A stretch of 64,000 bases of DNA, from assembly GCA_050115495.1 (NCBI GenBank), contig JASFQK010000019.1, forward strand, positions 57,924 through 121,923, read 5' to 3'. The position numbers were made by a program, and so were the translations under genes. Positions 9,977-63,027 of this stretch are shown piece after piece. The DNA is from Phycisphaerae bacterium (lineage in GTDB: Bacteria > Planctomycetota > Phycisphaerae > UBA1845 > Fen-1342). The notes beneath the pieces are model-generated. The model ran no database searches, had not been told where the DNA came from, and saw only the letters and a list, made by a program, of their open reading frames with translations. The first letter of the stretch is position 1. Every line of letters starts with the position of its first letter.

Positions 9977-10465
9977 ATGCAACCCACCATTCTGATCGTC
10001 GACGACGATCCCGCCCAGCTGGCCGCGATTGCGCGGGTCCTGAGGCGTTCACGGTATGAGGTGGTTACGGCCAGGAGCGGTCGAATCGGACTGCGCATGG
10101 CGGTGAAGAGCCCTCCCGCCCTGATTCTGCTGGACATTTCGATGCCGACCATGTCGGGACACGAATTCCTGCGCCGGCTGCGTCGGCTGGAGGCCGCCGG
10201 CCGGCTGGCCAAGCAGCCTGGGGATAACTGCCCCGGGCGAATGGACATTCCGGTGATCTTCGTGACGGCGCTGGCTGCACCTCGACAACGCGTCGACGGT
10301 CTCGACGCCGGCGCGGTCGACTACATCGTCAAGCCGTTCCATCCGGACGAGTTGCGGGCGAGAGTGCGCCGGCAGTTGCGACTCGCCGCCCGGCAGCACC
10401 AGGCCCTGTCGACGCTGCAAGCGGAGTTGCGGCACGCGGCACCGCGACGCCGCCGGAGGAGATAA
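9977..10465 (+). CDS. Response regulator receiver protein
   Basis: ILIVDDD, LILLDISMP, IPVIFVTA, DYIVKPF. Confidence 0.9.
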   Translation: MQPTILIVDDDPAQLAAIARVLRRSRYEVVTARSGRIGLRMAVKSPPALILLDISMPTMSGHEFLRRLRRLEAAGRLAKQPGDNCPGRMDIPVIFVTALAAPRQRVDGLDAGAVDYIVKPFHPDELRARVRRQLRLAARQHQALSTLQAELRHAAPRRRRRR

Positions 10466-10469
10466 CCGC

Positions 10470-10985
10470 ATGAACGAATCCAGTGGATTGGACGAGCGCC
10501 CCACCATTCTGTGCGTCGACGATGAGCCGAACGTGCTGCACGCGTTGGAGCGACTCTTGCGCGTCGACGGCTGGCGCGTGTTGCTGGCCACCGACGGCCG
10601 GGCGGCGCTCGACACGCTGCAGCGCGAGCACGTCGACGTCCTGATCTGCGACCAGGCCATGCCCGGCCTGTCCGGCACGGAGGTTTTGCGGCAGGCCAAG
10701 GCGGCGTCGCCAGAGACGGTGCGGATCCTGCTCACGGCGCATTGGAGCGAAGGAGAGGTGGTGCTGCCGGCGATCAACGAGGCCGAAGTGTTCCGGGTGT
10801 TTCCCAAGCCCTGGCACGACGAGCAGGTACGCGGCGCCGCGGTCGAGGCGTTGGGGGCGGACCCGCGCACCTGGGCCGGATTGCGCCGTCGGCTGCTGGA
10901 CCGGATGCGAGGCGAGTCAGGGCCGTGCCCAGACGGCCTGACGCCGGCGGCGCCAGGCGAGCGGGCCGGTGATCCGACGGAGTAG
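10470..10985 (+). CDS. Response regulator receiver protein
   Basis: ILCVDDE, LICDQAMP, RILLTA, FPKPW. Confidence 0.9.
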   Translation: MNESSGLDERPTILCVDDEPNVLHALERLLRVDGWRVLLATDGRAALDTLQREHVDVLICDQAMPGLSGTEVLRQAKAASPETVRILLTAHWSEGEVVLPAINEAEVFRVFPKPWHDEQVRGAAVEALGADPRTWAGLRRRLLDRMRGESGPCPDGLTPAAPGERAGDPTE

Positions 10986-10988
10986 GTT

Positions 10989-13900
10989 GTGGTGCGGAAC
11001 GAGGATCAGCCGAAGACCGCTGCCGCCGGGCACGCTGCCACCTCACGCGGCGGGCGCATGGGTCCTTATTTCGTAGGGGCCCTGACGCTGTTCGCAGGCC
11101 TGGTGATCACGGCCTCGGCGTTCGTCTGGGTGCGGAATTGGGAGTCCGTGCGGATCTCGGCGGACTTTCAGCGCGACGCCGCGAGCATGATCGTCAGTCT
11201 CCGCACCGAACTCCGCAGCCACCTGGAAACGCTTCACTTTCTGCGCGAGTTTTACGCCAGAGTCCCGCGCGTCGAGCGGGCCGACTTCGAGACCTTCGTC
11301 AGTGGCGCGCTGCGCCGGCACCACGGCTTCCAGGCGATAGAGTGGATACCGCGCGTTCCCGCTGGGCAGCGCGAGGCGTTTGAGCGGGCCGTTCGTGCAG
11401 ACGGCTTCCCGGACTTCCGCATCCATCCGCCAACGAATCGAGACGAGTGCTTCCCGGTTAACTTCGTCGTTCCATTCGCGGGAAACGAAAAGGCGCACGG
11501 CTACGACGTGGCCTCCCAGCCGCAGCGTCTGGCGGCGCTTGAGACGGCTCGTGCTTCGGGGGAGATGACGGCGACGGCGCCGATCCGTCTGATCCAGGAG
11601 GCCGGCGAGCAGGCGGGCTTTCTGGCCTTCATGCCCATTTACGCGGGAGGCGAGTTCCCGGCCACGGTCGAGCAGCGGCGCGAACGCCTGGCCGGCTTCG
11701 TCCTGGGTGTCTTTCGGGCCGGCGATTTGATCGACGGTTCTGTTCAAGGGCTGGACACGGAGGGAATCGCCTACTCCGTCGACGACGTGACCGATCCGCA
11801 GCAGGCGGCCGCCATCTATCGCCATCCGGCCGAGGTCGCCGGCACCGAGGCGGCGGCGACAGCCGGCGAACCCGGCGCGCTCCGTTTCGACGATACGCTG
11901 GAAGTGGCCGGACGCCGGTGGATGCTGGTGTGTCAGCCCATCGCCGGTCACGCGGCCTTTCGAGTGTCGCGGCTGCCCTACGTAGTGCTGGCCGGGGGCG
12001 CGTTGTTCTCGTTTCTGCTGGCCGGTTACCTCAGGGCCATCGTCGGCCGGTCGGCCCGCACAGCCCGCGACGTGCGGGAGCGCACAGCCGAGCTGTCTGC
12101 GACCAACGCGCAATTGAAGAAGGAGGCGCGGGAGCGCCAGCTGGCCGATGAGCTGCTCCAACGGAACCTCGCCCGGCAGGTGCGTCTGAACCGCCTGCTC
12201 CAGGACGATTTGCCGCGTGCACCGGAGCTGGAGGACAAGCTGCAGAGGATCACGGACGCGATCGCCGAGATCTTCCACACAGATCTCTGCCGCATCTGGT
12301 TCATCGCGGCCGGCGACCGCTGCGACTCCGGCTGCGTGCACGGGAGCGCGGTGGACGGGCGGCAGGTGTGCCAACGCCGCGACCGGTGCTTGCACCTGGT
12401 CGCCAACGCCGGCCATGGGGCCCACGCCGACCGTGGCATGCAGGATCGCGTGCCGTTCGGCCAGTGTCGGATTGGTAAGGTTGCGGCGACGGAGGAAGCC
12501 AAGTTCCTTACGAATGACCTGCAACACGATCCGTGCATGCCCAAACAGGGCTGGGCAAGCGACCTGGGCCTGATGTCCTTCGCCGGCTACCGGCTGTGCG
12601 CCGCCGACGGTGAGTCGATCGGCGTCCTGGCGGTCTTCTCGCAGCGAGCGCTCGCCCCGGATGAGGACAGCCTGCTCGAGGCCATGGCCACCCACGCCAG
12701 CCACATCATCCAGGCGTCCCGCGCCGAGGACGAGCTGAAGCGGGCGCGCGACGGGCTGGAGAGCCGGGTCGAACAGCGTACGGCGGATCTGGCGCAGGCC
12801 AACCGCGCGCTGGCCAAGGAGATCGAGAGCCACTCGCGTGCCGAAGAAGCGCTGCGGGAGAGCGAGACCAAGTATCGCCAGCTCTTCGAGAGCCTCAACG
12901 ATGCGGCGTTCCTGGCGGACGTGGAGACCGGGCGTATCCTCGAAACGAACCGGTGCGGCGAGGAGTTGCTGGGGCGCACCCGTGACGAGATTATCGGGAT
13001 GCACCAACGCGACCTGCACCCGCCGGAGCTGGCAGCCGATTACGAAGTCACATTCGCGTCGCACTTCGCCCAGGGCAAGGTGGTCGACTACGACGGTGAG
13101 ATCGGCCGGGCGGACGGCACGGTCGTCCCCGTACGTATCAGCGCTGCGCCGCTCACGCTGAACGGGCGGCCTGCCCTGCTGGGACTCTTCCACAACATCG
13201 CCGAGCAGAAGCGCGCGGACGAAACCGCCCTGGCCTTCAGCCGACAGCAGAGCGTGGTGGATGCGCTCCTACGGATGGGGCTGGAGGATACTCCGCTGGA
13301 CGAGGTCCTGGAGCATTGCCTGAGTGAGATTGTCTTCAACACCTGGATGGACCTGGTGCCTCAGGGGGCGATCTACCTGGTGGAGGACGAGCCGGGTGTG
13401 CTCGTGCTGCGTGCGCGGGCCGCCGCGGGCCCCACGGAAACGGCCTGGCACCGCCGTATCCCGGCTGGACAGGGTCTGTGCGGGGAGGCGGTGACGTCGG
13501 GCGAGACACAGTTTTCCGACGGCACGGAGGCGTCTGACACGACCGGGGCGATCAGCTCCGAGGAACCGCCGCCGCACGGCCACTACTGCGTGCCGCTGCG
13601 GTCGATGCAGGGTCCGCTGGGCATGCTGGTGCTCGGCACGCCGCCGGGCTACGAGCGTTCGGTCGTGCAGGAGGACTGTCTTGATGCCGTGTCGGTGACC
13701 ATCGGCGACATCATCCAGCGCAAGCGGATGGAGGAGAAGCTGCGCGAGTCGGAGGCCCGTCACCGGGCGATCACGGAGGCGGCCCAGGACGCCATCATCA
13801 CCGCCGACGCCAACGGCCGCATTCGCTTCTGGAATCCCGCGGCGGAGAGGATCTTCGGATTCACCGCCGACGAGATCGTCGGCCAACCCGTGATCGAAGC

Positions 13901-14990
13901 GCTCGTGTCGCCCCAGGCCCGAGAGGACCGGCGACGTGATCTGGACCGGCGGGCCCGCGAGGGCGCGTCCCCCGGTCGCACGCTGGAGTTCAACGGACTG
14001 CGAAAGGACGGCGCCGAGTTCCCGATGCAGGTCTCCCTCTCCGGTTATACCGATCACGAAGGTCCCGTGACCGTAGCCCTGGTGAAGGACATCACGGACC
14101 GCAAGCGGGCTGAAGTGGAGCTGGAAACCGCCAATCGCGAATTGCAGGATGCCTCCCGGCGGGCCGGGATGGCCGAGGTAGCCTCCGGCGTGCTCCACAA
14201 CGTGGGCAACGTGCTGAACACGGCGAACGTCTCGGCGCAACTGGCCACCGACCGCGCTCGCCAGTTGCAGGTGGCCAAGCTGACCCGGGTCGTGCCGTTG
14301 CTGGAAGAGCAGGCTGCGGCCGATGAAGCGTCGCCAGCCGCCGCCAAGAACCGTCAGATCGCGCTGTATCTGCGCCAGTTGGCGGAACATCTCACCGATG
14401 AGCAGGCGAACATGCTCCAGGAACTCGGCGCCCTGCAGGGCAGCATCCGGCACGTCGCCGACATTGTGAGCATGCAGCAGACGTACGCGCGAGATTCGGG
14501 CGTGGTCGAGACCTTCTCGGTCAACAGCGTGATCAGGGACGCCCTGCGCATGAGCGCGACGTCGTTCGAGCAGCTCGGCATCGCCGTGGTTGTGCAGTGC
14601 CCCGAGCGGCTGAAGCTGACGACCGATCGGCAGAAGCTCCTGCAGATCCTGGTCAACCTGATTCGCAATGCCAACCACGCCCTGCAGGAGCGGGACGAGC
14701 CCGGCCGGCAACTGACCGTCGCCGCGACGCAGACCGACGGCGGTCGCGTACGGACCGCGGTGATCGACAACGGCGTGGGTATCGCCCCGGAACACGTGGC
14801 CCGCCTGTTCGCCTTCGGGTTCACGACCAAGAAAGACGGCCACGGGTTCGGGCTGCACAGCAGTGCGCTGGCGGTGAAGGCCATGGGCGGTTCGCTGACA
14901 GCGCACAGTGACGGACGCGGTCACGGAGCGACCTTCACGCTGGAATTGCCGGCGGAGCCAGAGAGGACGGACGATGCAAACGGCGATTGA
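10989..14990 (+). CDS. Membrane sensor histidine kinase: CHASE-GAF-PAS-GAF-PAS-HisKA-HATPase
   Basis: TM-flanked CHASE ('GYDVASQPQRLAALETARASGEMTATAPIRLIQE'); two GAF and two PAS domains; H-box 'GVLHNVGNVLN', N-box 'QILVNLIRNA', DNGVG, 'GFTTKKDGHGFGL'. Confidence 0.93.
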   Translation: MVRNEDQPKTAAAGHAATSRGGRMGPYFVGALTLFAGLVITASAFVWVRNWESVRISADFQRDAASMIVSLRTELRSHLETLHFLREFYARVPRVERADFETFVSGALRRHHGFQAIEWIPRVPAGQREAFERAVRADGFPDFRIHPPTNRDECFPVNFVVPFAGNEKAHGYDVASQPQRLAALETARASGEMTATAPIRLIQEAGEQAGFLAFMPIYAGGEFPATVEQRRERLAGFVLGVFRAGDLIDGSVQGLDTEGIAYSVDDVTDPQQAAAIYRHPAEVAGTEAAATAGEPGALRFDDTLEVAGRRWMLVCQPIAGHAAFRVSRLPYVVLAGGALFSFLLAGYLRAIVGRSARTARDVRERTAELSATNAQLKKEARERQLADELLQRNLARQVRLNRLLQDDLPRAPELEDKLQRITDAIAEIFHTDLCRIWFIAAGDRCDSGCVHGSAVDGRQVCQRRDRCLHLVANAGHGAHADRGMQDRVPFGQCRIGKVAATEEAKFLTNDLQHDPCMPKQGWASDLGLMSFAGYRLCAADGESIGVLAVFSQRALAPDEDSLLEAMATHASHIIQASRAEDELKRARDGLESRVEQRTADLAQANRALAKEIESHSRAEEALRESETKYRQLFESLNDAAFLADVETGRILETNRCGEELLGRTRDEIIGMHQRDLHPPELAADYEVTFASHFAQGKVVDYDGEIGRADGTVVPVRISAAPLTLNGRPALLGLFHNIAEQKRADETALAFSRQQSVVDALLRMGLEDTPLDEVLEHCLSEIVFNTWMDLVPQGAIYLVEDEPGVLVLRARAAAGPTETAWHRRIPAGQGLCGEAVTSGETQFSDGTEASDTTGAISSEEPPPHGHYCVPLRSMQGPLGMLVLGTPPGYERSVVQEDCLDAVSVTIGDIIQRKRMEEKLRESEARHRAITEAAQDAIITADANGRIRFWNPAAERIFGFTADEIVGQPVIEALVSPQAREDRRRDLDRRAREGASPGRTLEFNGLRKDGAEFPMQVSLSGYTDHEGPVTVALVKDITDRKRAEVELETANRELQDASRRAGMAEVASGVLHNVGNVLNTANVSAQLATDRARQLQVAKLTRVVPLLEEQAAADEASPAAAKNRQIALYLRQLAEHLTDEQANMLQELGALQGSIRHVADIVSMQQTYARDSGVVETFSVNSVIRDALRMSATSFEQLGIAVVVQCPERLKLTTDRQKLLQILVNLIRNANHALQERDEPGRQLTVAATQTDGGRVRTAVIDNGVGIAPEHVARLFAFGFTTKKDGHGFGLHSSALAVKAMGGSLTAHSDGRGHGATFTLELPAEPERTDDANGD

Positions 14991-45299: not shown

Positions 45300-45434
45300 T
45301 TGGGTGGTCCCGGCTGGTTATTATTATAAGCACTTACGGACAAAGACTTTGCAATTATTCCCCCGTTGGCGGCCGGCTAGAGAAGCGGGCTACTGGCCCG
45401 TGGTTGCTATACCTTGTGCGAGTATCTTATAATT

Positions 45435-47048
<1,614 letters not shown>

Positions 47049-47103: not shown

Positions 47104-49248
47104 TCAGCGGCGGCGTTTGCGCACGAGCCCGACGACCGACAGACCAAGCGCCAGCGCACTGATGCTCGGGCACAGGGCACCCGCGTGCGGACACCCGTTG
47201 GCATCGACGCCCTCGCCCGGCGGTGTGTCGGGGCAGAGGTCGGCGCTGTCCGGAACGCCGTCGCCGTCCGAGTCGGCGTCCGCGGTCGAGAAGGACCAGA
47301 CCGGCCCGAGGGTCGTACCGTTGGCGTTGCGAGCGGTAATCTGCCAGTAGTACGTCTGCCCTGGCGCGAGCGCATCGGGTTGCCAGGTGCTGGCAGTCGT
47401 GGTCGTCGCCAGGGCCGGCGGGTCTGTTTCACCGAAGCATACGTCGTAGGAACTGGCCCAGGCTGAGTCGTACCAATCGACGACGCTGTCGAACGCCACG
47501 TCGGCGGCGCCGTTCTCTGGGAACGGTGCGATCAGCATCCCGGGCCGCGGGCTCTTCAACCCCAGGCTCTGCCCACCGGCCGCGGCGATGGCGGTGAACC
47601 CGCTGTTGGGCGTCGGCAGGTCACATTGGTGACGGCTGTTGTCGCCCCAGGCCACCAACGAGCCGTCAGCTTTGAGCCCCACACTGAAACTGGCGCCGCT
47701 GGCCGCGGCGATGAAACCGGTGTTGGGCTCCGGCACGTCGCACTGGCCATCGTCGTTCAGACCCCAAGCCAGAATCGAGCCATCGGCTTTCACACCCAGG
47801 CAGTGGTAGGTGCCCGCCCCGACAGCGATGTACCCGCTGTTTGGGATGGGGACTGGAACGTAGGTGTGGCTCCCGCCGCCGGCAGTCCACCAACGACCCC
47901 AAGTTCGGATCGAGCCGTCGGACGAAAGGGCCATGCTGTGCTGCCGTCCCGCCGCGACGGCGACGAAGACCTGCCCGCTGAGGGGTGCTGGGACGTCGCA
48001 CTGGCCGGTATCGTTGCGGCCCCACGCCCGGAGCGAGCCGTCCGCCATGAGCGCGACACAGTGGTAGTCACCTCCGGCCAGCGCGACGATGTCCGTGCTG
48101 TTCAGGCCCGGCACGCCCTCGGGAAAGTCGCCCCAAACCGCGATCGAGCCGTCGGATTTCAGGCCCAGACCGTAGGACCACCCGGCGGCGACCGCGAAGA
48201 AGTCGGTGTTCGGTTCCGGCACGTCGCAAACGCCGCCCACGGAACTCCCCCAGGCGATGATCGAGCCGTCGACGTTCAGACCCAGGCTGAACCCACTGCC
48301 CGCCGCCATGCCGACGAAGCCTGTTTGCTCCACGGTGCGGTAAGCTCCGTCGTCCCAGGCAACGACGGAGCCGTCAACCTTGAGGCCTATGCAGTCGGCT
48401 CCGATGGCGATGAAGCCGCTGTTGGGCTCAGGTCCAGCAAGCCGCTCTGCCGATCCGCCGCCCCATACGACGATCGAGCCGTCGGCCTTGAGACCGAGGC
48501 TGTAGTTGTAGCCGGCCGCCACCGCAACGAAGTCGGCGTTGGGCGCCGGTACGTCGCACTCGCCGGACGTGTTGCGACCCCAGGCCTCGACTGTCCCATC
48601 GGCGCGCAGGCCGAGGCTGTGCGCCTCACTGCCGGCCATCGCGACGAAACCGGTGTTCGGTTCCGGGACATCGCACTGACCGTATCTGTCGCTCCCCCAG
48701 GCGACGATCGAGCCGTCTTCTTTCAGGCCCATGCTGTGGTACCAGCCGGCCGCGACTCCGACGAACGCGCTGTTGGGTGCAGGAACGTCGCATTGACCGC
48801 TGGGGTTGAAGCCCCAGGCGACGACGGAACCGTCGCCCTTCAGTCCGAGACTATGGAGGAAACCCGCCGCGATCGCGACGAACCCGCTGTTCGGCGCCGG
48901 CACGTCGCACTGACCCCACTGGTTGTAGCCCCAGGCCACGAGCGAGCCATCCTCCTTGCGGGCCAGACTGTGCGACCCGCCACCAGCGATCTCCACGAAA
49001 CCACCGTTCGGCGCGGGGATCAGGCACTGCCCTTGACCATTGCTCCCCCAGGCGACGAGCGATCCGTCCGACCGGAGCCCGAGGTCATGCCCCGCGCCGG
49101 AGTTGATGGCAACCAAGCCGGCGATTTCCGCCGGCGGCACGACTACCTGGTCGCCCCAACCCACGATCACGCCGGTGTCCTGAGCCGGCGCCGGTCCGAC
49201 CAGCAGAACGACTGCGAAAACCCCCGTCACCAGACGCGCCTTCACCAT
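47104..49248 (-). CDS. Surface protein with ~14 RCC1/BLIP-II repeats, FN3-like domain, DxDGDG Ca-binding motif and C-terminal anchor
   Basis: Signal peptide; ~40-aa repeats 'CDVPxPNxGFVAxAAGxxHSLGLKxDGSIVAWG'; 'TYYWQITARN'; 'DSDGDGVPDSADLCPDTP'; TM plus RKRRR. Confidence 0.88.
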   Translation of the reverse strand: MVKARLVTGVFAVVLLVGPAPAQDTGVIVGWGDQVVVPPAEIAGLVAINSGAGHDLGLRSDGSLVAWGSNGQGQCLIPAPNGGFVEIAGGGSHSLARKEDGSLVAWGYNQWGQCDVPAPNSGFVAIAAGFLHSLGLKGDGSVVAWGFNPSGQCDVPAPNSAFVGVAAGWYHSMGLKEDGSIVAWGSDRYGQCDVPEPNTGFVAMAGSEAHSLGLRADGTVEAWGRNTSGECDVPAPNADFVAVAAGYNYSLGLKADGSIVVWGGGSAERLAGPEPNSGFIAIGADCIGLKVDGSVVAWDDGAYRTVEQTGFVGMAAGSGFSLGLNVDGSIIAWGSSVGGVCDVPEPNTDFFAVAAGWSYGLGLKSDGSIAVWGDFPEGVPGLNSTDIVALAGGDYHCVALMADGSLRAWGRNDTGQCDVPAPLSGQVFVAVAAGRQHSMALSSDGSIRTWGRWWTAGGGSHTYVPVPIPNSGYIAVGAGTYHCLGVKADGSILAWGLNDDGQCDVPEPNTGFIAAASGASFSVGLKADGSLVAWGDNSRHQCDLPTPNSGFTAIAAAGGQSLGLKSPRPGMLIAPFPENGAADVAFDSVVDWYDSAWASSYDVCFGETDPPALATTTTASTWQPDALAPGQTYYWQITARNANGTTLGPVWSFSTADADSDGDGVPDSADLCPDTPPGEGVDANGCPHAGALCPSISALALGLSVVGLVRKRRR

Positions 49249-49752
49249 GACTGCACCTCCCGCTGTTGTTCCCTCACCCGCCTCGCACGAACCTGAGGCC
49301 GGAACAGCGGCACGCCCCGAAGGTGCACCCCGCCGGTGCGGTCCTGCTCCTGCGCCGATTGCTCGTGCAAGAGCGTTGTCAACAAGTCTATAGGACAAAC
49401 GGTGTGTCCGTCAACGCCGGCACATGATCCGGACGTTTGCACTTACTCACAGGGGCATGTGCGTCTTCCCCCGTGCAGGCGACACGCGGTCTGAATTGGA
49501 TGCGCGGAACACAGCCCAGGCCCAAGATACCGGTCGCTTCCTGGATCGCCCCGAGACAACGAGGCACTCAGACAAACGGGCGGGCGGCGGCGGGGGGCGG
49601 ATCGGCTCCCGATGGACGCCACTCCCACCGCCAAACCGACGACCGATCCGGTGCAGGCTGGTCTGCGTTCCGAACCGTGTCGGCTCTTTACCCGCGAAGA
49701 CAGTGGGCCGCGCCGCCCGCAGCGTGGGCGCGTGGTCCCACTTAGCCGGTGG

Positions 49753-50939
49753 TCACGCCACGGGAACGCGCGCCGGCCGATCCTCGCCGGCGAAGACCGC
49801 CGCACTCAACGGCTGGCCGGCCGCAACGGTCCGCGCGAAAGAGGCCAGCACGTGGCCGGCGTCGTGCGGTCCGGGGTTGGCCTCCGGGTGGAACTGGACG
49901 GCGGCGATGCCGTGCCCGGCGTGCACGAAGCCCTCGAGGCTGTCATCGTTCAGGTTCACGTGCGTCGGTGTCCCGCCGACGCGCTCCAGCGAAGCCGCGT
50001 CCACCGCGAAGCCGTGGTTCTGGCTGGTGATCTCCACGCAGCCGGTCAACCGGTTCAGCACCGGCACGTTCACGCCGTGATGGCCGAACCGCAGCTTGTA
50101 CGTGCTCGCCCCGAGCGCGAGCGCGAGGAGCTGATGCCCCAGGCAAATGCCGAATATGGGCAGGCGGCCCAGTAGCCGGCGAAGCATCTCGATCACGGCC
50201 GTCACCGCGGCGGGATCGCCCGGCCCGTTGCCGATGAGCAGCGCATCCGGTCGCAGGTCGCCGATGTCCGCCGTGCTGGCGTTGGCCGGCACCACGGTCA
50301 GCCGGCATCCCTGCTCCGCCAGGTGACGCAGGATGTTGTGCTTGATGCCGCAATCCAGGACGACGATATGACGCGATGCGTGTGCCACCTCTGTCGGCCC
50401 CCTGCCGTCCAACGCGTGTAACCGCTCCGACCACGGCCGCGCCGCCGACGGCGTCACGTCGGCGACCAGATTCGCCCCGCTCATCGGCGTAGCCGCACGC
50501 GCCTGCCGCACCAGTTCGAGGTCGTCGAGCACCTCCGTGGACAAGACGCCCCGCAGCGCCCCGCAGACGCGGATGTGCCGCGTGACCGCCCGTGTGTCGA
50601 CACCCGTCACGGCCATGAGCTGGTGCCGCTCGAAGAACTCCGCGAGCGACGCCGACGCCCGACAGTTGCTCGGCCGCCGTGGCAGCTCCTTCAGCACGAC
50701 TCCAGCCGCGTATGGTCGAGCCGCCTCGAAGTCCTCCGCATTGACGCCGTAGTTGCCGAGCAGCGGGAAGGTCATGGTCACGATCTGCCCGCAGTACGAC
50801 GGGTCGGTGAACACCTCCTGGTACCCGGTCATGCCCGTGTTGAACACGACTTCGCCGGCGCGCGTGCCATCCACGCCCACCGCAGTACCGGTGAACACCG
50901 TGCCGTCCTCGAGGGCCAGCTTGGCCGGTCGGTCTGTGC

Positions 50940-50943
<4 letters not shown>
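49753..50943 (-). CDS. carA: Carbamoyl-phosphate synthase small subunit
   Basis: '[10 protein letters not shown]', '[14 protein letters not shown]', GNGPGDP, GICLGHQ, QNHGF, QFHPE. ATGA overlap with carB. Confidence 0.95.
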
Positions 50944-54626
<3,683 letters not shown>

Positions 54627-54629
54627 CTA

Positions 54630-56003
54630 TCACTCCTCGACGCAATCGGTCGGCAACAGCGCAGCTTCCGCCGCTCGTACATGCTCGCGCCGCTCGCGCG
54701 CCTGGTCCCTCAGCGTGACGAACTCCGCGCGGAAGGCGGCGAGCACGTCCGCCGGCAACCGACCGTCCGTGCTGCGCCACTGCGGTAACTCCGGCGGGGC
54801 GAAAGTCCCCGCGCGAATCTCGGCGGCGACTTCGCGGTAGGCCGTCCGGAAAGGCGTTCCCGTCGCCGCCCGGGCCAGCGCCGCGTGCGCAGCATACAAC
54901 TCCGGGCGCATGGCCGCCGCGAGCCGTTCCGCACGGAGCAGGAAACCATCGATCACGCGTGTCGCCATCTCCAGGAGCTGCGTCGTGGCGAGCGCCACAC
55001 GAATCGCGGGTTCCTTCGTTAACTGCAAGTCCCGGTGATAGCCGGACGGCAGCTTCCCCGCGACGCGCTCGATCTCGGTAACCCGGGAGCGCAGTCGGGC
55101 GGCGCCGCCGCGGAGCAACTCCAGCACGTCGGGGTTGTGCTTGTTGGGCATGATCGACGAACCGGTCGACAGCGCCTCGGGGAGCGCGCAGAAGCCGAAC
55201 TCCGCCGTGCAGAACAGCAGCAGGTCCGAGGCGAGCTTCTCCACAACGCCGCCGACGTCCGCACCGACGCGGGCGAAGTAGCACTCCATGCGCCCCCGGC
55301 TGTTCTGCACGTCGAGCGGGCTGCGCTGGATGCCGCTGAAGCCGAGCAACCCGGCGGCGTACATCCGGTCCAGCGCCAGCGGCACGCCGTAGCCGGCGCC
55401 GGTGTGCAGCGGACACGCATCGAGCCGGTTCAACAGATCGTACGCGGCGCGCATCTGCTCCAGCGCGGCCTCGCCGTGGGCATGCAGCCAGAGCCCGACG
55501 CTCGAAGGCATGGCCTGCTGGAGATGCGTGTACCCGGGCATCGGCGTGGTTCCATCCCGCTCGATGCGTTCCAGCAACGTGCCGATGAAGTCGGCGATGT
55601 CGTCCAGCCACAGCATCGTGTGGTGCCGCAGGAACAGCCGCAGCGCCGTCGCGACCTGGTCGTTGCGGGAACGGCACGCGTGGATCTTCTCGCCGGCGAT
55701 GCCGCAGTGTCGCACCAGTTCCGCCTCGAGGGCGGTGTGACCGTCCTCCAGCTCCGGCGGAATGTCGAACTCGCCCCGCTGCGCCCGCCGGTCGGCGGCC
55801 GCCAACGCACCCAGCAAAGCCGCCAACTCGTCCTCACTAAGCAAACCGACCCGAACCAGCGTTCGGGCGTGGGCCGCCGTTCCCAGGCAATCCCAGTGCA
55901 GGAGGTAGCGATCCCAGGTCGGATCGTCTCCCACCGTGAAGCGATGAACCGCCACGTCCAACGGCTCGCCTTTCTCCCACAGCCGCGGCGGCGAGAGGTT
56001 CAT
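54630..56003 (-). CDS. argH: Argininosuccinate lyase
   Basis: 'RSRNDQVAT', 'MPGYTHLQQA', 'STGSSIMPNKHNPDVLE', 'SGYHRDLQ'. Confidence 0.95.
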   Translation of the reverse strand: MNLSPPRLWEKGEPLDVAVHRFTVGDDPTWDRYLLHWDCLGTAAHARTLVRVGLLSEDELAALLGALAAADRRAQRGEFDIPPELEDGHTALEAELVRHCGIAGEKIHACRSRNDQVATALRLFLRHHTMLWLDDIADFIGTLLERIERDGTTPMPGYTHLQQAMPSSVGLWLHAHGEAALEQMRAAYDLLNRLDACPLHTGAGYGVPLALDRMYAAGLLGFSGIQRSPLDVQNSRGRMECYFARVGADVGGVVEKLASDLLLFCTAEFGFCALPEALSTGSSIMPNKHNPDVLELLRGGAARLRSRVTEIERVAGKLPSGYHRDLQLTKEPAIRVALATTQLLEMATRVIDGFLLRAERLAAAMRPELYAAHAALARAATGTPFRTAYREVAAEIRAGTFAPPELPQWRSTDGRLPADVLAAFRAEFVTLRDQARERREHVRAAEAALLPTDCVEE

Positions 56004-57076
56004 GGCTGCTCTCCAGTCAGTGCGAAGTACTCGCGAACGACTTGCAGATAGGTCGCGAAGCCCTGCTCCAGCTCGTCCGCGGTGATGAACTCATCGGGCG
56101 TGTGGGAGCGGGCCGATTGCCCCGGACCGAGCTTCACCGCCGGAACTCCGGCGAGGAACACCATGTCACTCATGGCCGCGCTCCCGGCGGGCGATACGCC
56201 AGGCCGTGCGCGGCACGCTGCCCTGACGATCGCTGCGTCGGACGCCGTTTCGACCGGCACGAGTCGCTCGCTGTGGACGCAGAGTTCGCTACGGAAAGCC
56301 GCGCGGAGCCGTTCGTACAGCGCCCCATGCGTTTCGCCGGGCGTCGTGCGCACGTCGAGCATGAACTCGCACGTGTCCGGAACGACGTTATTGGCGACGC
56401 CGCCGTAGATCCGCGTCGGATGTGCGTGGCAGCGGCCCAGGAGCGGATGCTCCGGGCCCCAGTCGAACGCAGCCAGCGTGTCCAGGTCGCGTGCCGCGAC
56501 CGCGATCGCATTATCCGCACTCCCCGGCGGCGTGTTGGCCGGGTGGCCGCTCCGGCCGCGAGCCACGCCGCGCAGCACGAGCAAGCCGCGCTGGGCGATC
56601 ATCGGAACGAGACCGGTGGGCTCGCCGACGATGGCCGCGTCCAGCGGCGACAGCTCCGGCAGAATCGTCGCGAGCCCCTGTCCGTTGATTTCCTCTTCTG
56701 CGGTCAACGCCAGCACGACCGTGCCCCCCAGGCGTTCGCCGCGATTCAGCAGTTCCCGCAGGCGCAGCACGGTCGTCAACAGGGCGACGACGCAGCCCTT
56801 CGCATCGTTGGCACCCAACCCGCTGAGACGGCCGTCGTGTACCTGCGGCTGCCACGGATCGTGCGACCAACCCTGTCCCGGCGGCACTGTGTCCAGATGT
56901 GAATTGAGCAGCAGTCGCGGCCGCGGCGCATCGCCCAGTTCGCACAGCAGGTTGTTCGCCTGACGCCGCGCGCGCAGCCCCGCCTCGGCCAGATCCGCCT
57001 CGATGGCGTCGGCGAGCGCCGCCTCCTGGCCCGAGACACTGCGTATGGCCACGTAGCGGGCGAGCGACTCGATCAC
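56000..57076 (-). CDS. argE: M20-family N-acyl-ornithine/citrulline deacylase
   Basis: 'LNSHLDTVP', 'GLGANDAKG', 'AEEE', 'VGEPT', 'SHTPDE'. GTGA overlap with argB. Confidence 0.88.
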   Translation of the reverse strand: MIESLARYVAIRSVSGQEAALADAIEADLAEAGLRARRQANNLLCELGDAPRPRLLLNSHLDTVPPGQGWSHDPWQPQVHDGRLSGLGANDAKGCVVALLTTVLRLRELLNRGERLGGTVVLALTAEEEINGQGLATILPELSPLDAAIVGEPTGLVPMIAQRGLLVLRGVARGRSGHPANTPPGSADNAIAVAARDLDTLAAFDWGPEHPLLGRCHAHPTRIYGGVANNVVPDTCEFMLDVRTTPGETHGALYERLRAAFRSELCVHSERLVPVETASDAAIVRAACRARPGVSPAGSAAMSDMVFLAGVPAVKLGPGQSARSHTPDEFITADELEQGFATYLQVVREYFALTGEQP

Positions 57077-58005
57077 GTTCCGCCCCCCTGTGTGCCGTTG
57101 TTCTTCGCGTTGCGCTTCGCCACGATGAGCGTGCCGCAGCCCTCGTTCGTGAACACTTCGCCGAGCAGCGTATCGGGGATCAGCCCGTTGATGATGTGCA
57201 CGCGCGGCACGCCAGCCATTAGCGCCGCCCGGCACGCGGCCAGCTTGGGCAGCATTCCGCCGCTGATCACGCCCGACTCAACCAGCGCGGCGGCCTGATC
57301 CAGGTCGAGGTACGTCTGCAACGTGCGTGCATCGGACTTGTCCTGCAGCACGCCATCCACCGTTGTGACGAGGAAGAGCTTCGCGGCCTCGATCGCCCCG
57401 GCCAGCGACGCCGCAACCGTGTCGGCGTTGACGTTGTACACCTGCCCGGCCGCGTCCGCCGCCAGGCAGCCGACGACCGGCACACAATCGCCCGCCAGCA
57501 AGTGGCGCAGCGGCGCGGCGTTCACCGCCACCACGTCCCCGACGAAACCGAAGTCCACCTCGCGAGTGCGGTTCGTTTCCGCATCATGCAGCGTTTGCAC
57601 GGGACGTCGTTGCGCTTCGATGAGACCCGCGTCCACGCCGCTGACGCCGACGGCGGCCACGCCCGCCTTGCGGAAGGCGGCCACGATATTGGTGTTCACG
57701 ACGCCGGCGAGCGTCATCTTGGCGATTTCGAGCACGGGCGCAGTGGTAACCCGGCGGCCGCCGATGATCTCCGGCTCAACGCCCAGGCGCGTGCTGAGAT
57801 CGCTCATCTGCTCGCCGCCACCGTGCACGACGACCAAGCCGATACCGAGGCCGTGCAGGTGCGCGAGCTGATCCACGAGGTTGTCCATCGCTCGGCCGGG
57901 TGCGCACAAGCGACCGCCCAGCTTGATCACGAACACGCGGCCCTTGTAGGCACGGATGTAGGGGATCGCCGTGCGGAGGGCGTCGAGCTTCACCTGCAAC
58001 TGCAT
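57073..58005 (-). CDS. argB: N-acylglutamate kinase
   Basis: 'VIKLGG', 'VVHGGG', 'GRRVT', 'YNVNADTVA', 'GGMLPKL'. Confidence 0.93.
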   Translation of the reverse strand: MQLQVKLDALRTAIPYIRAYKGRVFVIKLGGRLCAPGRAMDNLVDQLAHLHGLGIGLVVVHGGGEQMSDLSTRLGVEPEIIGGRRVTTAPVLEIAKMTLAGVVNTNIVAAFRKAGVAAVGVSGVDAGLIEAQRRPVQTLHDAETNRTREVDFGFVGDVVAVNAAPLRHLLAGDCVPVVGCLAADAAGQVYNVNADTVAASLAGAIEAAKLFLVTTVDGVLQDKSDARTLQTYLDLDQAAALVESGVISGGMLPKLAACRAALMAGVPRVHIINGLIPDTLLGEVFTNEGCGTLIVAKRNAKNNGTQGGGT

Positions 58006-59036
58006 GACTGGACCTCCTCGGCACACCCGGCCTCGCGCTGCGTCAGCAGCGCCGTCAGAATCGCCACCTGCGACCAGAGGCGGTTCTCCGCCTGGTCCAC
58101 TACGACGCTCCGCGGGTCATCGAGTGCCTCGTCCGCGATGACCACGTTCCGCCGAACCGGCAGGCAGTGCAGCAGCCGCGTCTGCGGCCCGAGATGGGCC
58201 GGCGTAACCATCCAGTCGGCGTGGCGACGGAAGTCGGCCCGTTGTTCTTCCTGTTGGCCGTACAGCGCCGGGCTGCCCCAGCTCTTCACGTACACGACGT
58301 CGGCACCGCGGGTTGCCGCCGTCTGGTCGGCCGTGAGCATGAACTCGGCGCCCGCGGCTGCACACCACGCCCCCGCCCGGTCCAGTATCGCCGCGTTCAG
58401 CTCGTAGCCGGGAGGATGGGCCACGGTGACGTTCATCCCGGCCGCCGCGGCCGCCAGCATCGCCGAATGCGGCACCGCCATCGGCAGCGCCTTGACCTGC
58501 GGCGCCCACGTGAGCACGAAACGTCGGCCGCGTGGCTCGCCGAGCTGCTCCGCCATCGTCTGCCAGTCCGCGAGACCCTGACACGGATGCTCGACCGCGG
58601 ATTCCATATTGATCACCGGCACCGTCGCGAAGCGGGCGAACGCGCAAATGACGTGGTCGGCCGCGTCCTCCGCCGCATCACGCAGACCGGCGAACGTCCG
58701 CACGGCCAGCAGGTCGCCATACCGGCTGAGCACCGGCGCCGCCTCGCGAATGTGCTCGGCCGCCTCGCCGTCCATCACCGTGCCATCACGGTGTTCGAGC
58801 TTCCAGGCATCGCCGCCGACATTCAGACAGACGGCGTGTCCGCCGTAGCGGAGCATCGCCGCCTCGAAGGAAACACGCGTCCGCAGCGATGGATTGAAGA
58901 AGACGAGCGTCAGAATGCGTTCACGCAACTTGGCGGTTACCACCTCGCCCTGCCCCGCCTTGCAGCGGCGTGCCAGCGCGACCAACTCGGCCAGTTCCGC
59001 GGGTTCGTAGTCCAGCATGCTCAGCCAGTGACGCAT
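57990..59036 (-). CDS. argF: N-acyl-ornithine carbamoyltransferase (ArgF' type; succinyl-type signature)
   Basis: 'FFNPSLRTR', 'WKLE..DGTVMDGEAAEH', 'HPCQGLAD', 'HCLPVRRN' are typical of AOTCase/SOTCase rather than OTCase. Confidence 0.9.
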   Translation of the reverse strand: MRHWLSMLDYEPAELAELVALARRCKAGQGEVVTAKLRERILTLVFFNPSLRTRVSFEAAMLRYGGHAVCLNVGGDAWKLEHRDGTVMDGEAAEHIREAAPVLSRYGDLLAVRTFAGLRDAAEDAADHVICAFARFATVPVINMESAVEHPCQGLADWQTMAEQLGEPRGRRFVLTWAPQVKALPMAVPHSAMLAAAAAGMNVTVAHPPGYELNAAILDRAGAWCAAAGAEFMLTADQTAATRGADVVYVKSWGSPALYGQQEEQRADFRRHADWMVTPAHLGPQTRLLHCLPVRRNVVIADEALDDPRSVVVDQAENRLWSQVAILTALLTQREAGCAEEVQSCSCR

Positions 59037-59111
59037 CGCTCAGTTCTCCCGGTTCGGCCAATGCGGCGGCCGGACACGCAGCGCGGCCACCCGCCGGGCA
59101 CGGCCTCGCCT

Positions 59112-60176
59112 CTATACCGGGCGCAACGCCGGGACCCACAAACCGGCGGTCTCCGGCAGTCCGCACATGAGGTTCAGGTTCTGCACCGCCGTGCCCGCCA
59201 TACCTTTCACCAGGTTGTCCAGGGCGGTCATGACGATCACGTGTCGTTCACGGCACGCCAACCCGATATCGCAGAAGTTCGAGCCGACCACGTTCTGCAA
59301 GGCCGGCGATTCGTCCACGATCCGCACAAAGGGCCGACCGGCGTAGAACGCCTCGTACTTTCGCCGCAACGATTCCACATCCGTCGGCTCAGCCAGTGTG
59401 GCGTGCGCCGTGACGAAGATGCCGCGGGCGACGTCCAGGCTCTGCGCGACGAAGCTCATGGCCAGCCGCTGACCGTACGGGTCGCCCAGCGCTTGCAGAA
59501 TCTCCGGCTCGTGTCGGTGCGCCAGCGGCTTGTACGCGCGAAAATCAGCGTGGCGCGTCGGATGGTGCGTCCCGTCCTTGAGCTGCCGGCCGGAGCCGGA
59601 CGAACCGGTTTTTGCGTCGACGGCGAGCGGCCCGCTGAGTTTCACGCCGGCCAGCGGCGCGAGGGCCAGGATCGCCGCCGTCGCCAGGCAGCCGGGATTC
59701 GCGACACATCGCGCGGCCTGCACGCGCTCCGGCCACAGTTCCGGCTGGCCATACACGAACGCCGACCGAAGCTCGGGCAGCAGCGGTGATTCCGGATAGT
59801 GACGTGCATGCAGCCCGGCGTCGCTGAGTCGGAAATCGCCGGACAGGTCGATCACGTGTACCGCCCGACCCTGCGGGTGCTGGCTCAATTCGTCCAGCAG
59901 CGCGGCGATCGCCTGGGCGCTGGCTCCGTGCGGCAGTGCCGAGATGACAACGGCGTGCTCACCGGCGAGAAGCCGCGTGGCATCGACGCCGGACGTCAGA
60001 CGCAAGTCATAGAACCCGCGCAGGTGCGGATGCACGTCGGCGACCGCAGCGCCCGCGGCAGAGCGTGACGTAGCACTGATGACCTCAACGGCCGGATGCT
60101 GCGTGAACAGGCGCAGCAACTCACCCGCGCCGTAGCCGGTCGCACCGAGAACCGCCACGTGCACGGGCCGACTCAC
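59112..60176 (-). CDS. argC: N-acyl-gamma-glutamyl-phosphate reductase
   Basis: 'GATGYGAGEL', 'IDLSGDFRL', 'VANPGCLAT', 'HRHEPEI', 'DNLVKGMAG'. Confidence 0.95.
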   Translation of the reverse strand: MSRPVHVAVLGATGYGAGELLRLFTQHPAVEVISATSRSAAGAAVADVHPHLRGFYDLRLTSGVDATRLLAGEHAVVISALPHGASAQAIAALLDELSQHPQGRAVHVIDLSGDFRLSDAGLHARHYPESPLLPELRSAFVYGQPELWPERVQAARCVANPGCLATAAILALAPLAGVKLSGPLAVDAKTGSSGSGRQLKDGTHHPTRHADFRAYKPLAHRHEPEILQALGDPYGQRLAMSFVAQSLDVARGIFVTAHATLAEPTDVESLRRKYEAFYAGRPFVRIVDESPALQNVVGSNFCDIGLACRERHVIVMTALDNLVKGMAGTAVQNLNLMCGLPETAGLWVPALRPV

Positions 60177-61234
60177 GCGTGGCCTCCCTGAACCGGCTGA
60201 GCGAGCTGTTCGATCACTGCGTTGCCCAGCTCGACCCCTTGCGTCCGAGCGTTCAGGGCCGCCAGCCCAAGCTGCTCGCGGACGTAGCGTGTGCCGACCG
60301 CATTGTCGGTCGCCGGACCGCTGACGACATCGATGCTCAGCCCAAACCGATCCGCCAGGATCCGTTGCGCGCCCCAGGCCCCGACCGGATCGTTCGCGCA
60401 GAGCACCAGCACGCGGATGCAGCGGCGAAGCTCAACATCGGCGAGGATCTCGGCTACGCCGTACTCCCCCAGCAAACCATCGCCCAACTCGGCGACGATC
60501 ACGTCAGCGCCGGCGTGCGCCAGGTGTTCCAGCAGCGTCCGCGCCACGGCAACCGCACTGGCCGCCGTCGTCGAGACCACGCCCGCATCGGTAAACGAGA
60601 CCGCCCAACGAGCCCCGTAGTCACGCATGTGCAGCACGTCGCGCCGCAGTGAGACGCCCGTCAACTTGCAGGCACCCACAGCCCTGCCATGCTTGGCGAG
60701 CTGCCGCACGAGCTGGCAGGCGGCGGACGTCTTGCCGCTGTTCATGCACGTGCCGGCGACGAACACCACCGGAACAGCCGGCGTCGGTTCGGGCGAGACC
60801 TTGAGCGCGTTCATCCCGATGTGGGCCGGCACGCCCTGGCGGTCCTCGAAATCGGGGAACACCAGCACGGCACCGAGCACCTCGAACGCGAAGGGCGGAC
60901 CGACGTCCGGGTTCTCCGACGTGCAACGACCGATGACGCCGCCCAGGTTGAGCACGTGCAGCGTGTCGCCGACCGCCAGCGTGTCCGGCACGTAGCCCGA
61001 GTAGCCGTGCAGCGCGCTCCGCGGGCCGAGGACGCCGGCGATCACGTCGCCTTCGTGCAACGTCACCATCCGTCCGTGCAGGTCCTCGAGTTGGTTGTAC
61101 GCGGTCTTCTCGCCATGAATGCGACCGGCCAGGATGTAGGATTCGCGCGCGATAATCTCCGGCGTGACCCGGACGTCGCGACGTAGCGGCACGTTCGCCG
61201 TCGCAGAGGCGAGCTTGTCAATCCACAGCCGCAT
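60173..61234 (-). CDS. DUF1611/DgcN-like P-loop protein embedded in the arg operon
   Basis: 'FVAGTCMNSGKT', 'KLTG', 'FTDAG..ST', 'VAELGDG'; overlaps both argG and argC. Confidence 0.7.
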   Translation of the reverse strand: MRLWIDKLASATANVPLRRDVRVTPEIIARESYILAGRIHGEKTAYNQLEDLHGRMVTLHEGDVIAGVLGPRSALHGYSGYVPDTLAVGDTLHVLNLGGVIGRCTSENPDVGPPFAFEVLGAVLVFPDFEDRQGVPAHIGMNALKVSPEPTPAVPVVFVAGTCMNSGKTSAACQLVRQLAKHGRAVGACKLTGVSLRRDVLHMRDYGARWAVSFTDAGVVSTTAASAVAVARTLLEHLAHAGADVIVAELGDGLLGEYGVAEILADVELRRCIRVLVLCANDPVGAWGAQRILADRFGLSIDVVSGPATDNAVGTRYVREQLGLAALNARTQGVELGNAVIEQLAQPVQGGHA

Positions 61235-62435
61235 GGTTCGCCTCTGCCTGCCGCGCCACCTGCGCCGCCAACTCATCCTGCAACCCGTAGAGCCGGCTGA
61301 ACGCGGCGGCGTCCGCACCGTTCCACAACGCAGCGGTCTCGCCATACCGCGCCCCGCAGCCCAGCAGTGAATACGGACTGGTCGCGCCCAGCACCTCCGC
61401 TCGTCCGGCGTGCAGGCGCACCCGCGCCTGTCCGTGCACGCGCTGCTGCGACGACATCAGAAACGCCTCCAGGTCGCGCATGAGCGGGTCAAAGAACCGC
61501 GCCTCATGCAGGCCGCTGGCGTAGAGGTCGCCGAGCGTGCGCTTCCACAGCAGTTGCTGCCGCGAGAGCACCAACTTCTCCAGCTCTCGATGCGCCGTGA
61601 TCAGCACGGTCGCGGCGGGGGCTTCGAATGCCACGCGGCCCTTGATGCCGAGGATCGTGTCGCCCACGTGCATGCCGCGCCCGACACCGTGTCGGCCAGC
61701 CCGCTCAGTCAGTTCGTCGATCAGCCGCACTGGGTCCAACCGCTCGTCATCCAGCGCCACCGGCACGCCGGCTTCGAACGAGATCCGGACGTCCTCAGCC
61801 GCCGTCGGCCATTGCCCCGCTGAGCGCGTGAGCACGTACGCCTCTTCCGGCAACGCACCTTCACCGGCGTGCGTCTCTGCCCCGCCGATCGTCGCACCCC
61901 ACAACCCGCGGTTGATCGAGTACGTCGCGATCTTTGCCGGAACCTCTACGCCGCGTTCCGCCAGATACGCCACTTCCTGCTCGCGCGTCAGACCCAACGC
62001 CCGAACCGGCGTCGCGATCTCGACCGCGGGGGCGAACACACGGAAGGCCACATCGAACCGAACCTGGTCGTTTCCCGCCGCCGTCGAGCCGTGAGCCAGC
62101 GCGGTGGCCCCGATCTCAACGGCGTGCAGGGCGCAGCGTTTGGCCTGAACGACGCGCTCGGCCGAGACGCACAGCGGATACACGTCGCCGCGCAAGGCAC
62201 CTGCGAAAATCAGATAGCGCAGGTAGTCATTGAACAACTCGCCGCGGGCGTCGATCGTGCGGTGATCCGCGACGCCGAGCGCTCGCGCCCGCCGTTCGAT
62301 CGCCGCCAACTCGTCGGTCGCGCTGTCCGTCTGCACGGTGACGGTGTGGACCTCGTAGCCCTGCTCGGCCAGCCAGACCGCGCAAAAGGACGTATCCAGA
62401 CCGCCAGAGAACGCTAAAACCGCCTTGCGCTTCAC
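61218..62435 (-). CDS. argG: Argininosuccinate synthase
   Basis: 'VLAFSGGLDTS', 'HGSTAAGNDQVRF', 'YSINRGLWG', 'GIKGRVAFEAP'. Confidence 0.95.
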   Translation of the reverse strand: MKRKAVLAFSGGLDTSFCAVWLAEQGYEVHTVTVQTDSATDELAAIERRARALGVADHRTIDARGELFNDYLRYLIFAGALRGDVYPLCVSAERVVQAKRCALHAVEIGATALAHGSTAAGNDQVRFDVAFRVFAPAVEIATPVRALGLTREQEVAYLAERGVEVPAKIATYSINRGLWGATIGGAETHAGEGALPEEAYVLTRSAGQWPTAAEDVRISFEAGVPVALDDERLDPVRLIDELTERAGRHGVGRGMHVGDTILGIKGRVAFEAPAATVLITAHRELEKLVLSRQQLLWKRTLGDLYASGLHEARFFDPLMRDLEAFLMSSQQRVHGQARVRLHAGRAEVLGATSPYSLLGCGARYGETAALWNGADAAAFSRLYGLQDELAAQVARQAEANHAAVD

Positions 62436-62475
62436 GGTCGCACCTTTGCTTGCCCCCGGTTCCGCCGACCGCCGG

Positions 62476-62961
62476 TCATTGGCCGGCCGCTCCGACATCC
62501 GGCCCGTCGCCGTCCGCCGGCGGCGGCGCCTTGAGCTGGGCCAACACGCGGCCCTGGGCCACACGGCTGCGGACAGCCACGAAGATCGTGTCATCGCCGG
62601 CCACCGTCCCCGCCATCTCCGGCACCTTCCTGCTGTCGAGTTCTACGGCCACGGTGGCCGCCGCTCCCGGCGGCGTCTTGACCACGATGAGGTTCGCCCC
62701 GACGGCCTCCGCAGAAACGATTAATTCATTGTAGAGCGAAGCCGCCCCGGGTGCCGACCGATCGACGCCGACCCGTGCCGCGGGCACGTACCGGCCGTCC
62801 ACCCGCACCAGGCCCAACTCGCGCACGTCGCGACTGACGCTTGCCTGAGTAACGTGAAATCCACGTTTCTCCAGCAACTGCACCATTTCCTCCTGGCTGG
62901 CCACCGGCCGTTGCCGTACCAGCTTCAGGAGCGTCGCCTGCCGCGTTCGTTGCTCTCTCAC
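62476..62961 (-). CDS. argR: Arginine repressor
   Basis: 'SQEE', 'TQASVSRDVREL', 'KTPPG', 'GTVAGDDTIFV'. Confidence 0.95.
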   Translation of the reverse strand: MREQRTRQATLLKLVRQRPVASQEEMVQLLEKRGFHVTQASVSRDVRELGLVRVDGRYVPAARVGVDRSAPGAASLYNELIVSAEAVGANLIVVKTPPGAAATVAVELDSRKVPEMAGTVAGDDTIFVAVRSRVAQGRVLAQLKAPPPADGDGPDVGAAGQ

Positions 62962-62974
62962 GGACCACCTCGAT

Positions 62975-63027
62975 TATGAATAAATCATCGGCCGTGCAAA
63001 TATATACAGTTGACCCCAACCGTCAAG
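62975..63027 (-). promoter_or_regulatory. arg operon promoter overlapping tandem ARG boxes
   Basis: Minus-strand TTGACG-N16-TATATT. ARG-box-like CGTGCAAATATATACAGT (62993-63010) and adjacent TATGAATAAATCATCGGC (62975-62992). Confidence 0.7.

Follow-up and report, generated by a model that had tools for sequence, protein, structure and literature searches.

The DNA analysed here, which we call the window, is a 64,000-nucleotide stretch of contig JASFQK010000019.1 from a Phycisphaerae bacterium, and it carries an arginine operon on its minus strand. One gene of this operon, gene X, is the subject of this report. X is a 353-codon frame that runs from an ATG at 61234 to a TGA at 60173; its start sits 17 nucleotides inside the end of argG, whose stop codon lies at 61218-61220, and its junction with argC is a GTGA overlap. 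The translation holds the motifs GTCMNSGKT (residues 161-169), KLTG (190-193) and ELGDG (249-253). An earlier note, made from the letters alone, had described these two overlaps and three motifs, and all were found again here. X is a genuine gene and not a chance frame, because 5471 of 8000 scored candidates were homologous to it and its predicted two-domain model (67 sequences) had a mean predicted local distance difference test score (pLDDT) of 96.5. The gene, its domains and the rest of the operon are as follows.

60173..61234, minus strand: gene X, predicted N-succinylglutamate-forming first enzyme of arginine synthesis, 353 amino acids (homologs, synteny, model, distribution)
60794..61234, minus strand: all-beta domain at the N terminus of X (residues 1-147), highly conserved and without a clear match in structure (model pLDDT 93.8, best Z 3.0)
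60176..60793, minus strand: C-terminal BioD/DUF1611-like P-loop domain of X, residues 148-353, with Walker A G161-T169, K190, D199 and Walker B E249 (profile, fold, conservation)
62476..62961, minus strand: argR, arginine repressor (Pfam and NCBIfam)
61218..62441, minus strand: argG, argininosuccinate synthase, start approximate (Pfam and NCBIfam)
59112..60176, minus strand: argC, N-acylglutamyl-phosphate reductase (TIGR01850 over cut-off)
57990..59036, minus strand: argF', N-acylornithine carbamoyltransferase with the succinyl-type Ala at the position of Xanthomonas Glu92 (NCBIfam and alignment)
57073..58005, minus strand: argB, N-acylglutamate kinase without a GNAT domain (Pfam and NCBIfam)
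56000..57076, minus strand: argE-like M20 deacylase, likely N-acylcitrulline hydrolase (Pfam and NCBIfam)
54630..56003, minus strand: argH, argininosuccinate lyase (Pfam and NCBIfam)
50940..54626, minus strand: carB, carbamoyl-phosphate synthase large subunit (named from sequence features of the translation)
49753..50943, minus strand: carA, carbamoyl-phosphate synthase small subunit, joined to the stop of carB by an ATGA overlap (named from sequence features of the translation)

The argF' product scored 394.8 bits on NF003384 (cut-off 288). The M20 deacylase is of the ArgE/DapE type and scores under the listed NCBIfam cut-offs, and the argH-type lyase, at 262 bits, lies under its NCBIfam cut-off of 279.5. 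The names of carB and carA come from features of their translations; carB precedes carA, and CarB is long (1228 amino acids) with several apparent insertions.

Among the genes of the operon we saw no argA, argJ or GNAT gene, which bears out what the earlier note had reported. That note overlooked that argD is missing as well: argF' follows directly on argC (59036-59112). A class III aminotransferase lies between these two genes in 46 of the 61 related loci that hold both, and none does in the other 15. The host-genome argD match over cut-off was rejected as argD, being lysJ of a LysW cluster. The stand-in for argD may be this lysJ (contig C4) or one of the class III aminotransferases on contigs C25 and C8.

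The missing first step and the distribution of gene X

We looked for a canonical first enzyme elsewhere in the host genome, which is 92.2% complete, and found no argA or argJ over cut-off. ArgJ gave no match in a profile search in which 10 of 14 controls gave a signal. The argA model matched only argB, lysZ and one weak GNAT protein, all under cut-off, and two short GNAT-type synthase models stayed far under theirs. The weak GNAT match (contig C14, 155 amino acids) was rejected as a synthase, as it falls far under all synthase cut-offs and adjoins ftsY and a methyltransferase-like gene. A search with PF04768 was uninformative, since no control matched.

Of 466 candidate stretches from a scan across species genomes, 199 proved to be relatives of X; the best 80 of these, at 50-77% identity, were kept, and many of the 80 loci end at contig ends. 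Arginine genes accompany X in 80/80: argC in 74, argG in 69, argF' in 61, argR in 55, argB in 52, argH in 40 and argE in 37. Wherever a locus holds both X and argC, argC lies directly 3' of X (74/74). X is 50-53% identical to its homologs in Woeseiaceae, and X-type proteins occur in Planctomycetota, Gammaproteobacteria (Woeseiaceae), Myxococcota, Armatimonadota, Bdellovibrionota, Acidobacteriota, Elusimicrobiota and others.

Family-profile scores fell into two bands, which we used to tell orthologs (>380 bits) from paralogs (about 205-245 bits). A sample of 151 genomes of the class contained the X ortholog in 5 and argJ in 122, with no overlap; a paralog was present in one argJ genome. Across 121 genomes of the order, X was found in 26 and argJ in 38, and no genome had both. 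ArgF' scored over cut-off in 24 of these 121, all of which carry X, and the two X genomes without an ArgF' over cut-off are assemblies of about 260 and 810 contigs. In a gammaproteobacterial order around a Woeseiaceae genome (101 genomes), 67 carried X and none carried argA or argJ; likewise, neither gene was found over cut-off in five X-carrier genomes of different lineages. The profiling that the earlier note had proposed came out as mutual exclusion of X and argJ in the samples of 121 and 151 genomes, together with recurrence in arg operons.

Within the order, argG is present in 95 of the 121 genomes, and 32 of these have neither X nor argJ. The argG loci of 10 of these 32 held, as arginine genes, only argR, argG and argH, with carB beside one. 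We had sought a GNAT gene in the slot of X at these 10 loci; instead, the whole de novo module was gone. X thus tracks the ornithine-making module and not argG and argH. The argR-argG-argH unit of the X-less relatives is a distinct one, about 28-37% identical to the genes of the window. This comparison suggests that the X-less relatives make arginine from imported citrulline, and that the X operon may be of separate origin.

Homologs of X without arginine genes do exist, but only in separate paralog clades. Of 16 paralog loci, 13 were probed for arg genes by tblastn and 3 were viewed as a listing of open reading frames (ORFs); no arg gene was found in the 13. An ATP-binding cassette (ABC) exporter neighbours the paralog in 6 of the 16 and an M20 peptidase in 6. 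The ABC-linked clade lies directly upstream of the exporter in both Planctomycetota and Gammaproteobacteria. In the M20-linked clade the gene follows an M20 peptidase and a flavin-reductase-like gene, and one locus adds a gamma-glutamyltranspeptidase and a GCS2 ligase; these loci are possibly an uncharacterised module for amino-acid acylation and hydrolysis. A quick tree of 31 chosen rows separated the arg, ABC-linked and M20-linked groups with Shimodaira-Hasegawa-like approximate likelihood ratio (SH-aLRT) values of 97-100, although it contains two long branches and its deeper order is unsure; in it a single branch (SH-aLRT 97) sets the 18 arg-linked rows apart from all others. GK[T/S], the Asp, the Glu and the second Lys are also retained in the five paralogs that were inspected.

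Synteny, mutual exclusion with argJ, co-occurrence with ArgF' and joint loss with the de novo module all support the proposal, already made in the earlier note, that X is a non-orthologous replacement for ArgA. We conclude that X very probably fills the first step of arginine synthesis.

Fold and conserved residues of the X protein

To what family X belongs was addressed by profile and by fold. On the DUF1611 profile (PF07755) X reached 13.5 bits against a cut-off of 25, over the P-loop only, and on bioD (TIGR00347) 14.7 against 83.3 bits, so X is not a BioD. No GNAT or ArgJ family matched X in Pfam or NCBIfam at E up to 0.1, and a single-sequence search of the PDB returned nothing at E up to 10. 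The fold of residues 148-350 of the model matched 2G0T (Z 17.4), 2OBN (16.1), BioD (15.8), ApbC (15.3), CTP synthase (15.1), DgcN 7XRJ (14.7), HypB (14.5), UreG (13.9) and formyltetrahydrofolate synthetase (13.6). Over 181-182 aligned residues, the root-mean-square deviation (rmsd) to 2G0T, 2OBN and 7XRJ was 2.9-3.3, and BioD falls in the same range (rmsd 3.2 over 179 residues). The Foldseek matches listed for the X model included signal recognition particle GTPases, BioD and HypB (E 1e-6 to 1e-4); none of those listed was a DUF1611 entry. The N-terminal domain, folded alone, had no clear match in 48,161 representatives (best Z 3.0), which does not show a new fold.

The host genome also encodes a true DUF1611 protein on another contig, which scores 238 bits and has 2OBN, 7XRJ and 2G0T as PDB matches at E <=1e-47. 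An X profile aligned with this protein over 35 columns, at a probability of 10%. No dgcA-like racemase was evident among the ORFs of the 3.6 kb around its gene (contig C57, 1072-2112 of the fetched stretch). Automatic names in the ESM Atlas read 'DUF1611 domain-containing', with DUF1611 on 11% of the members of one cluster, and serve as a lead only. The N-terminal domain of the DUF1611/DgcN family is, we presume, alpha/beta and Rossmann-like; residues 1-147 of the X model are almost all beta. By its predicted model, X is a structural cousin of DUF1611 and not a member. The description 'DUF1611/DgcN-like' in the earlier note therefore holds for the C-terminal P-loop fold, common to both (Z 14.7-17.4 to DUF1611 structures), and fails for family membership, given the score under the Pfam cut-off, the missing signature residues and the all-beta N-terminal domain.

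Twelve residues are invariant in 80 orthologs: G167, K168, T169, K190, G193, D199, E249, D252, D282, T309, D310 and N328. Wider homologs (n=67) keep K168 in 67, T169 in 66, K190 in 67, D199 in 65 and E249 in 67. In six full-length but distant homologs (27-32% identity) the P-loop set is conserved and the C163 and R198 positions vary. When the X family profile is set against dethiobiotin synthetase (E 2e-4), the alignment takes in the P-loop, K190 and D199. We matched E249 to the Walker B Glu of BioD by way of its hydrophobic strand, and the two are probably equivalent. As a comparison set we used the best 30 of 48 DUF1611 matches, which came from 47 of 151 genomes in the same phylum as the host of X. 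Directly behind their Walker A Lys, 26 of these 30 loci have M, 2 have K and 2 have R; the K190 position is V, I, R or L. All 30 have GK(M/K/R), TGQ and EGQ, where X and the 80 orthologs have GKT, K-x-(T/S)G and ExGDG. The Walker A Ser/Thr is a Mg ligand in P-loop catalysis (10.1101/2022.06.23.497301). A Walker B Glu is rare, BioD being an example in which the gamma-phosphate is passed to a carboxy group (10.1101/2022.06.23.497301). By these alignments X retains a predicted nucleotide site that the DgcN family has lost, and the conserved residues suggest ATP use at least as much as acyl-coenzyme A (acyl-CoA) use. Given the first-step role, we lean slightly toward ATP over acyl-CoA.

The predicted reaction and its alternatives

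The acyl group was approached through ArgF'. The best alignment partner of the operon's ArgF' was the E92A mutant form of Xanthomonas N-acetylornithine carbamoyltransferase, and this ArgF' likewise carries Ala at position 92. Across the 61 linked loci the equivalent position is A in 41, Q in 6, P in 5, S in 4, V in 3, T in 2 and Glu in 0, so that A, P, S or V occupies it in 53/61; these four residues mark the succinyl type by the rule cited in GapMind 2026 (PMC13759103). Succinylated intermediates are likelier because, under this rule, the operon's own ArgF' has Ala and Glu is absent from all 61. If X performs the first step, its acyl group is thus highly likely to be succinyl rather than acetyl. 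Where the earlier note had left the product as N-acetyl- or N-succinyl-L-glutamate, the succinyl half is strengthened and the acetyl half weakened. There is little chance that X makes N-acetylglutamate, by either chemistry, even though NCBIfam labels the neighbouring genes as acetyl-pathway enzymes and some linked ArgF' proteins carry residues outside the tested set (Gln in 6/61, Thr in 2/61).

We propose, at a probability of about 0.45, that X is an ATP-dependent succinate:L-glutamate ligase. Catalysis via succinyl phosphate would be the simplest reading, because the nucleotide site appears to be retained and the first step is missing. Mg-ATP would bind at Walker A (K168, T169), D199 and E249; its gamma-phosphate would pass to succinate, giving succinyl phosphate held by K168 and K190; and the amino group of L-glutamate would attack this intermediate to yield N-succinyl-L-glutamate, ADP and phosphate. 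The N-terminal beta domain may help to bind glutamate or inhibitory arginine, which is speculative. The linear, succinyl-type pathway would be finished by ArgB, ArgC, an aminotransferase encoded elsewhere, ArgF', ArgE, ArgG and ArgH. Modelled as two copies together with ATP and Mg, X reached a score of 0.28 against a mark of 0.42; this model gave no answer and was not used.

Several points weigh against the ligase. The top fold matches to X are the DUF1611 proteins 2G0T and 2OBN, and GTPases and ATPases that are not ligases (ApbC, HypB, UreG) match nearly as well. The Walker A Lys and the Glu are present in DgcN-family proteins too, so these two alone are no sign of ATP turnover. The roles given here to BioD K37 and to its Mg-binding Asp are in part presumed. 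The genomes compared are kin, so their counts overstate independent events. The first enzyme of the host might also be a very divergent short GNAT synthase, or be encoded in the portion of the genome that is missing from the assembly. DgcN, the only characterised relative in DUF1611, is cited as a D-glutamate acetyltransferase (PMC13759103), and the GapMind table marks its prediction of an N-succinylglutamate synthase as not confirmed (PMC13759103).

The nearest competitor, somewhat improbable in our view, is that X is a succinyl-CoA:L-glutamate N-succinyltransferase that reuses its P-loop for the CoA phosphates or the substrate carboxylate, which is the DgcN-based reading of GapMind 2026 and of the earlier note. 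Synteny, argJ exclusion and ArgF' co-occurrence speak for it just as they do for the ligase, X is structurally akin to DgcN and DUF1611 proteins, and ArgA and ArgJ, the established enzymes for this step, work by transfer of an activated acyl group. It is harder to square with the Walker A Thr and second Lys of X, both missing from 30/30 DUF1611 proteins, with the lack of TGQ and EGQG in X, and with the short, 10%-probability profile match to the host's own DUF1611 protein. Another gene, unrecognised, might instead make N-acylglutamate, with X as an accessory nucleoside triphosphatase such as a metal-loading chaperone of the M20 deacylase or an activator of ArgC. Such a role would suit a fold common to HypB, UreG, MobB and ApbC, paralogs that have an M20 peptidase as neighbour in 6 of the 10 gammaproteobacterial loci read, and the constant place of X directly before argC; we nevertheless consider it improbable, as an argE-like gene is present in 37 of 80 loci (some cut by contig ends) against 74 with argC, the first step would be left without a gene in all 26 + 67 carrier genomes, and ArgC elsewhere needs no such partner.

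That the LysW carrier cluster of the host supplies ornithine, leaving X dispensable for arginine synthesis, is very improbable. A lysW-lysX-lysY-lysZ-lysJ cluster is indeed present on contig C4, but its ligase scores as LysX over cut-off and has an EFKNS motif that we take to be lysine-type; moreover, an N-acylornithine is the substrate that ArgF' needs, and argB and argC are both present in the operon itself. At the LysW locus (9254-14006 of the fetched stretch) a class II glutamine amidotransferase-like gene (213 amino acids) lies between lysY and lysZ, and no lysK was in view there; as speculation, this gene could encode a substitute LysW-releasing hydrolase.

Published predictions, flanking features and implications

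The ligase proposal extends a role that has already been predicted for the X family (2024-2026); the proposed ATP chemistry is the addition of this analysis. GapMind 2026 predicts an alternative N-succinylglutamate synthase role for a Steroidobacter protein, ACG33_RS14135 (A0A127FCT3) (PMC13759103). It bases this on the arg operon context, on the exclusion of Pseudomonas-type ArgA, on a weak Foldseek similarity to 7XRJ and on the residue in ArgF' (PMC13759103). The GapMind supplement includes the plasmid pALF12 for the Steroidobacter gene, and its complementation table has no strain with pALF12 (PMC13759103). The pALF12 gene has 357 codons and shows, by eye, the same motif order as X (AGTCM, GKT, TGVSLRRD, ELGDGLLG, CANDPV, GPATDNAVG), and from these motifs and its length the protein reads as the same family. 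No Steroidobacter-named protein was among the 120 matches listed in a homolog search from a gammaproteobacterial ortholog. The word 'novel' in the earlier note can accordingly not be kept, as GapMind 2026 already makes this prediction for a protein that apparently belongs to the X family. The GapMind sections covered hold no discussion of ATP, P-loop residues, the N-terminal domain, argJ exclusion or paralog clades (PMC13759103). We did not find the ATP-ligase reading in those sections, nor in a literature search on ATP-dependent N-acetylglutamate ligases; a passage found under DUF1611 had no bearing on X, and the name DgcN was used in unrelated senses among the papers listed for it.

Set beside known systems, X is like the Steroidobacter family in its operon setting, ArgA exclusion, succinyl-type ArgF' and remote likeness to 7XRJ, and unlike it in residing in a Phycisphaerae-like genome and an operon without argD. 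With DgcN/DUF1611 (PF07755; 7XRJ, 2OBN, 2G0T) X shares the P-loop fold, Walker A Lys, Walker B Glu and a likely glutamate acylation; it differs in its 13-16% identity, GKT in place of GKM/K/R, its K190 and D199, the absence of TGQ/EGQG, its all-beta N-terminal domain and its biosynthetic L-glutamate context. X resembles the group of BioD, CTP synthase, formyltetrahydrofolate synthetase and cyclic 2,3-diphosphoglycerate synthetase in fold, in P-loop length and in having a second Lys, an Asp and a Glu-type Walker B. It is set apart from BioD by its score far under cut-off, its extra 147-residue beta domain and its arginine context, and its own ATP use is a prediction. ArgA (GNAT) and ArgJ share with X the likely pathway step, and no relation in sequence or fold was found.

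Upstream of argR lies a putative promoter region:

62973..63026, minus strand: two sigma-70-like promoter matches over an AT-rich ARG-box-like sequence (0.1 expected in shuffles)

The ARG box is a tentative call. Downstream of the operon lie two further genes on the plus strand. The gene at 47104-49398 encodes 764 amino acids, presumably RCC1-like repeats followed by a membrane anchor at the C terminus, and the product of 45414-47048 we take to be an RtcR-like sigma-54 activator.

More broadly, and slightly more tentatively than the ligase itself, X may be the first CoA-independent entry to arginine synthesis by small-acyl protection, combining a BioD-type P-loop ligase with a beta domain unlike the solved folds found here. 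Its paralogs, beside M20 hydrolases or ABC exporters, would then make the family a widespread, unrecognised class of amino-acid N-acyl ligases and the source of DgcN-type transferases. Should X be an ATP ligase, a 5,5'-dithiobis-(2-nitrobenzoic acid) (DTNB) assay with acyl-CoA would be blind to it and return a false negative, and should the product be succinylated, we would expect that complementation of E. coli delta-argA could fail, since the enzymes of E. coli work on acetylated intermediates and its AstE breaks down N-succinylglutamate. If the first-step role is true, an annotation gap would be closed for thousands of proteins across many phyla, and succinyl-type arginine synthesis would reach beyond Bacteroidota; if X is also an ATP ligase, this would be new chemistry for a textbook step.

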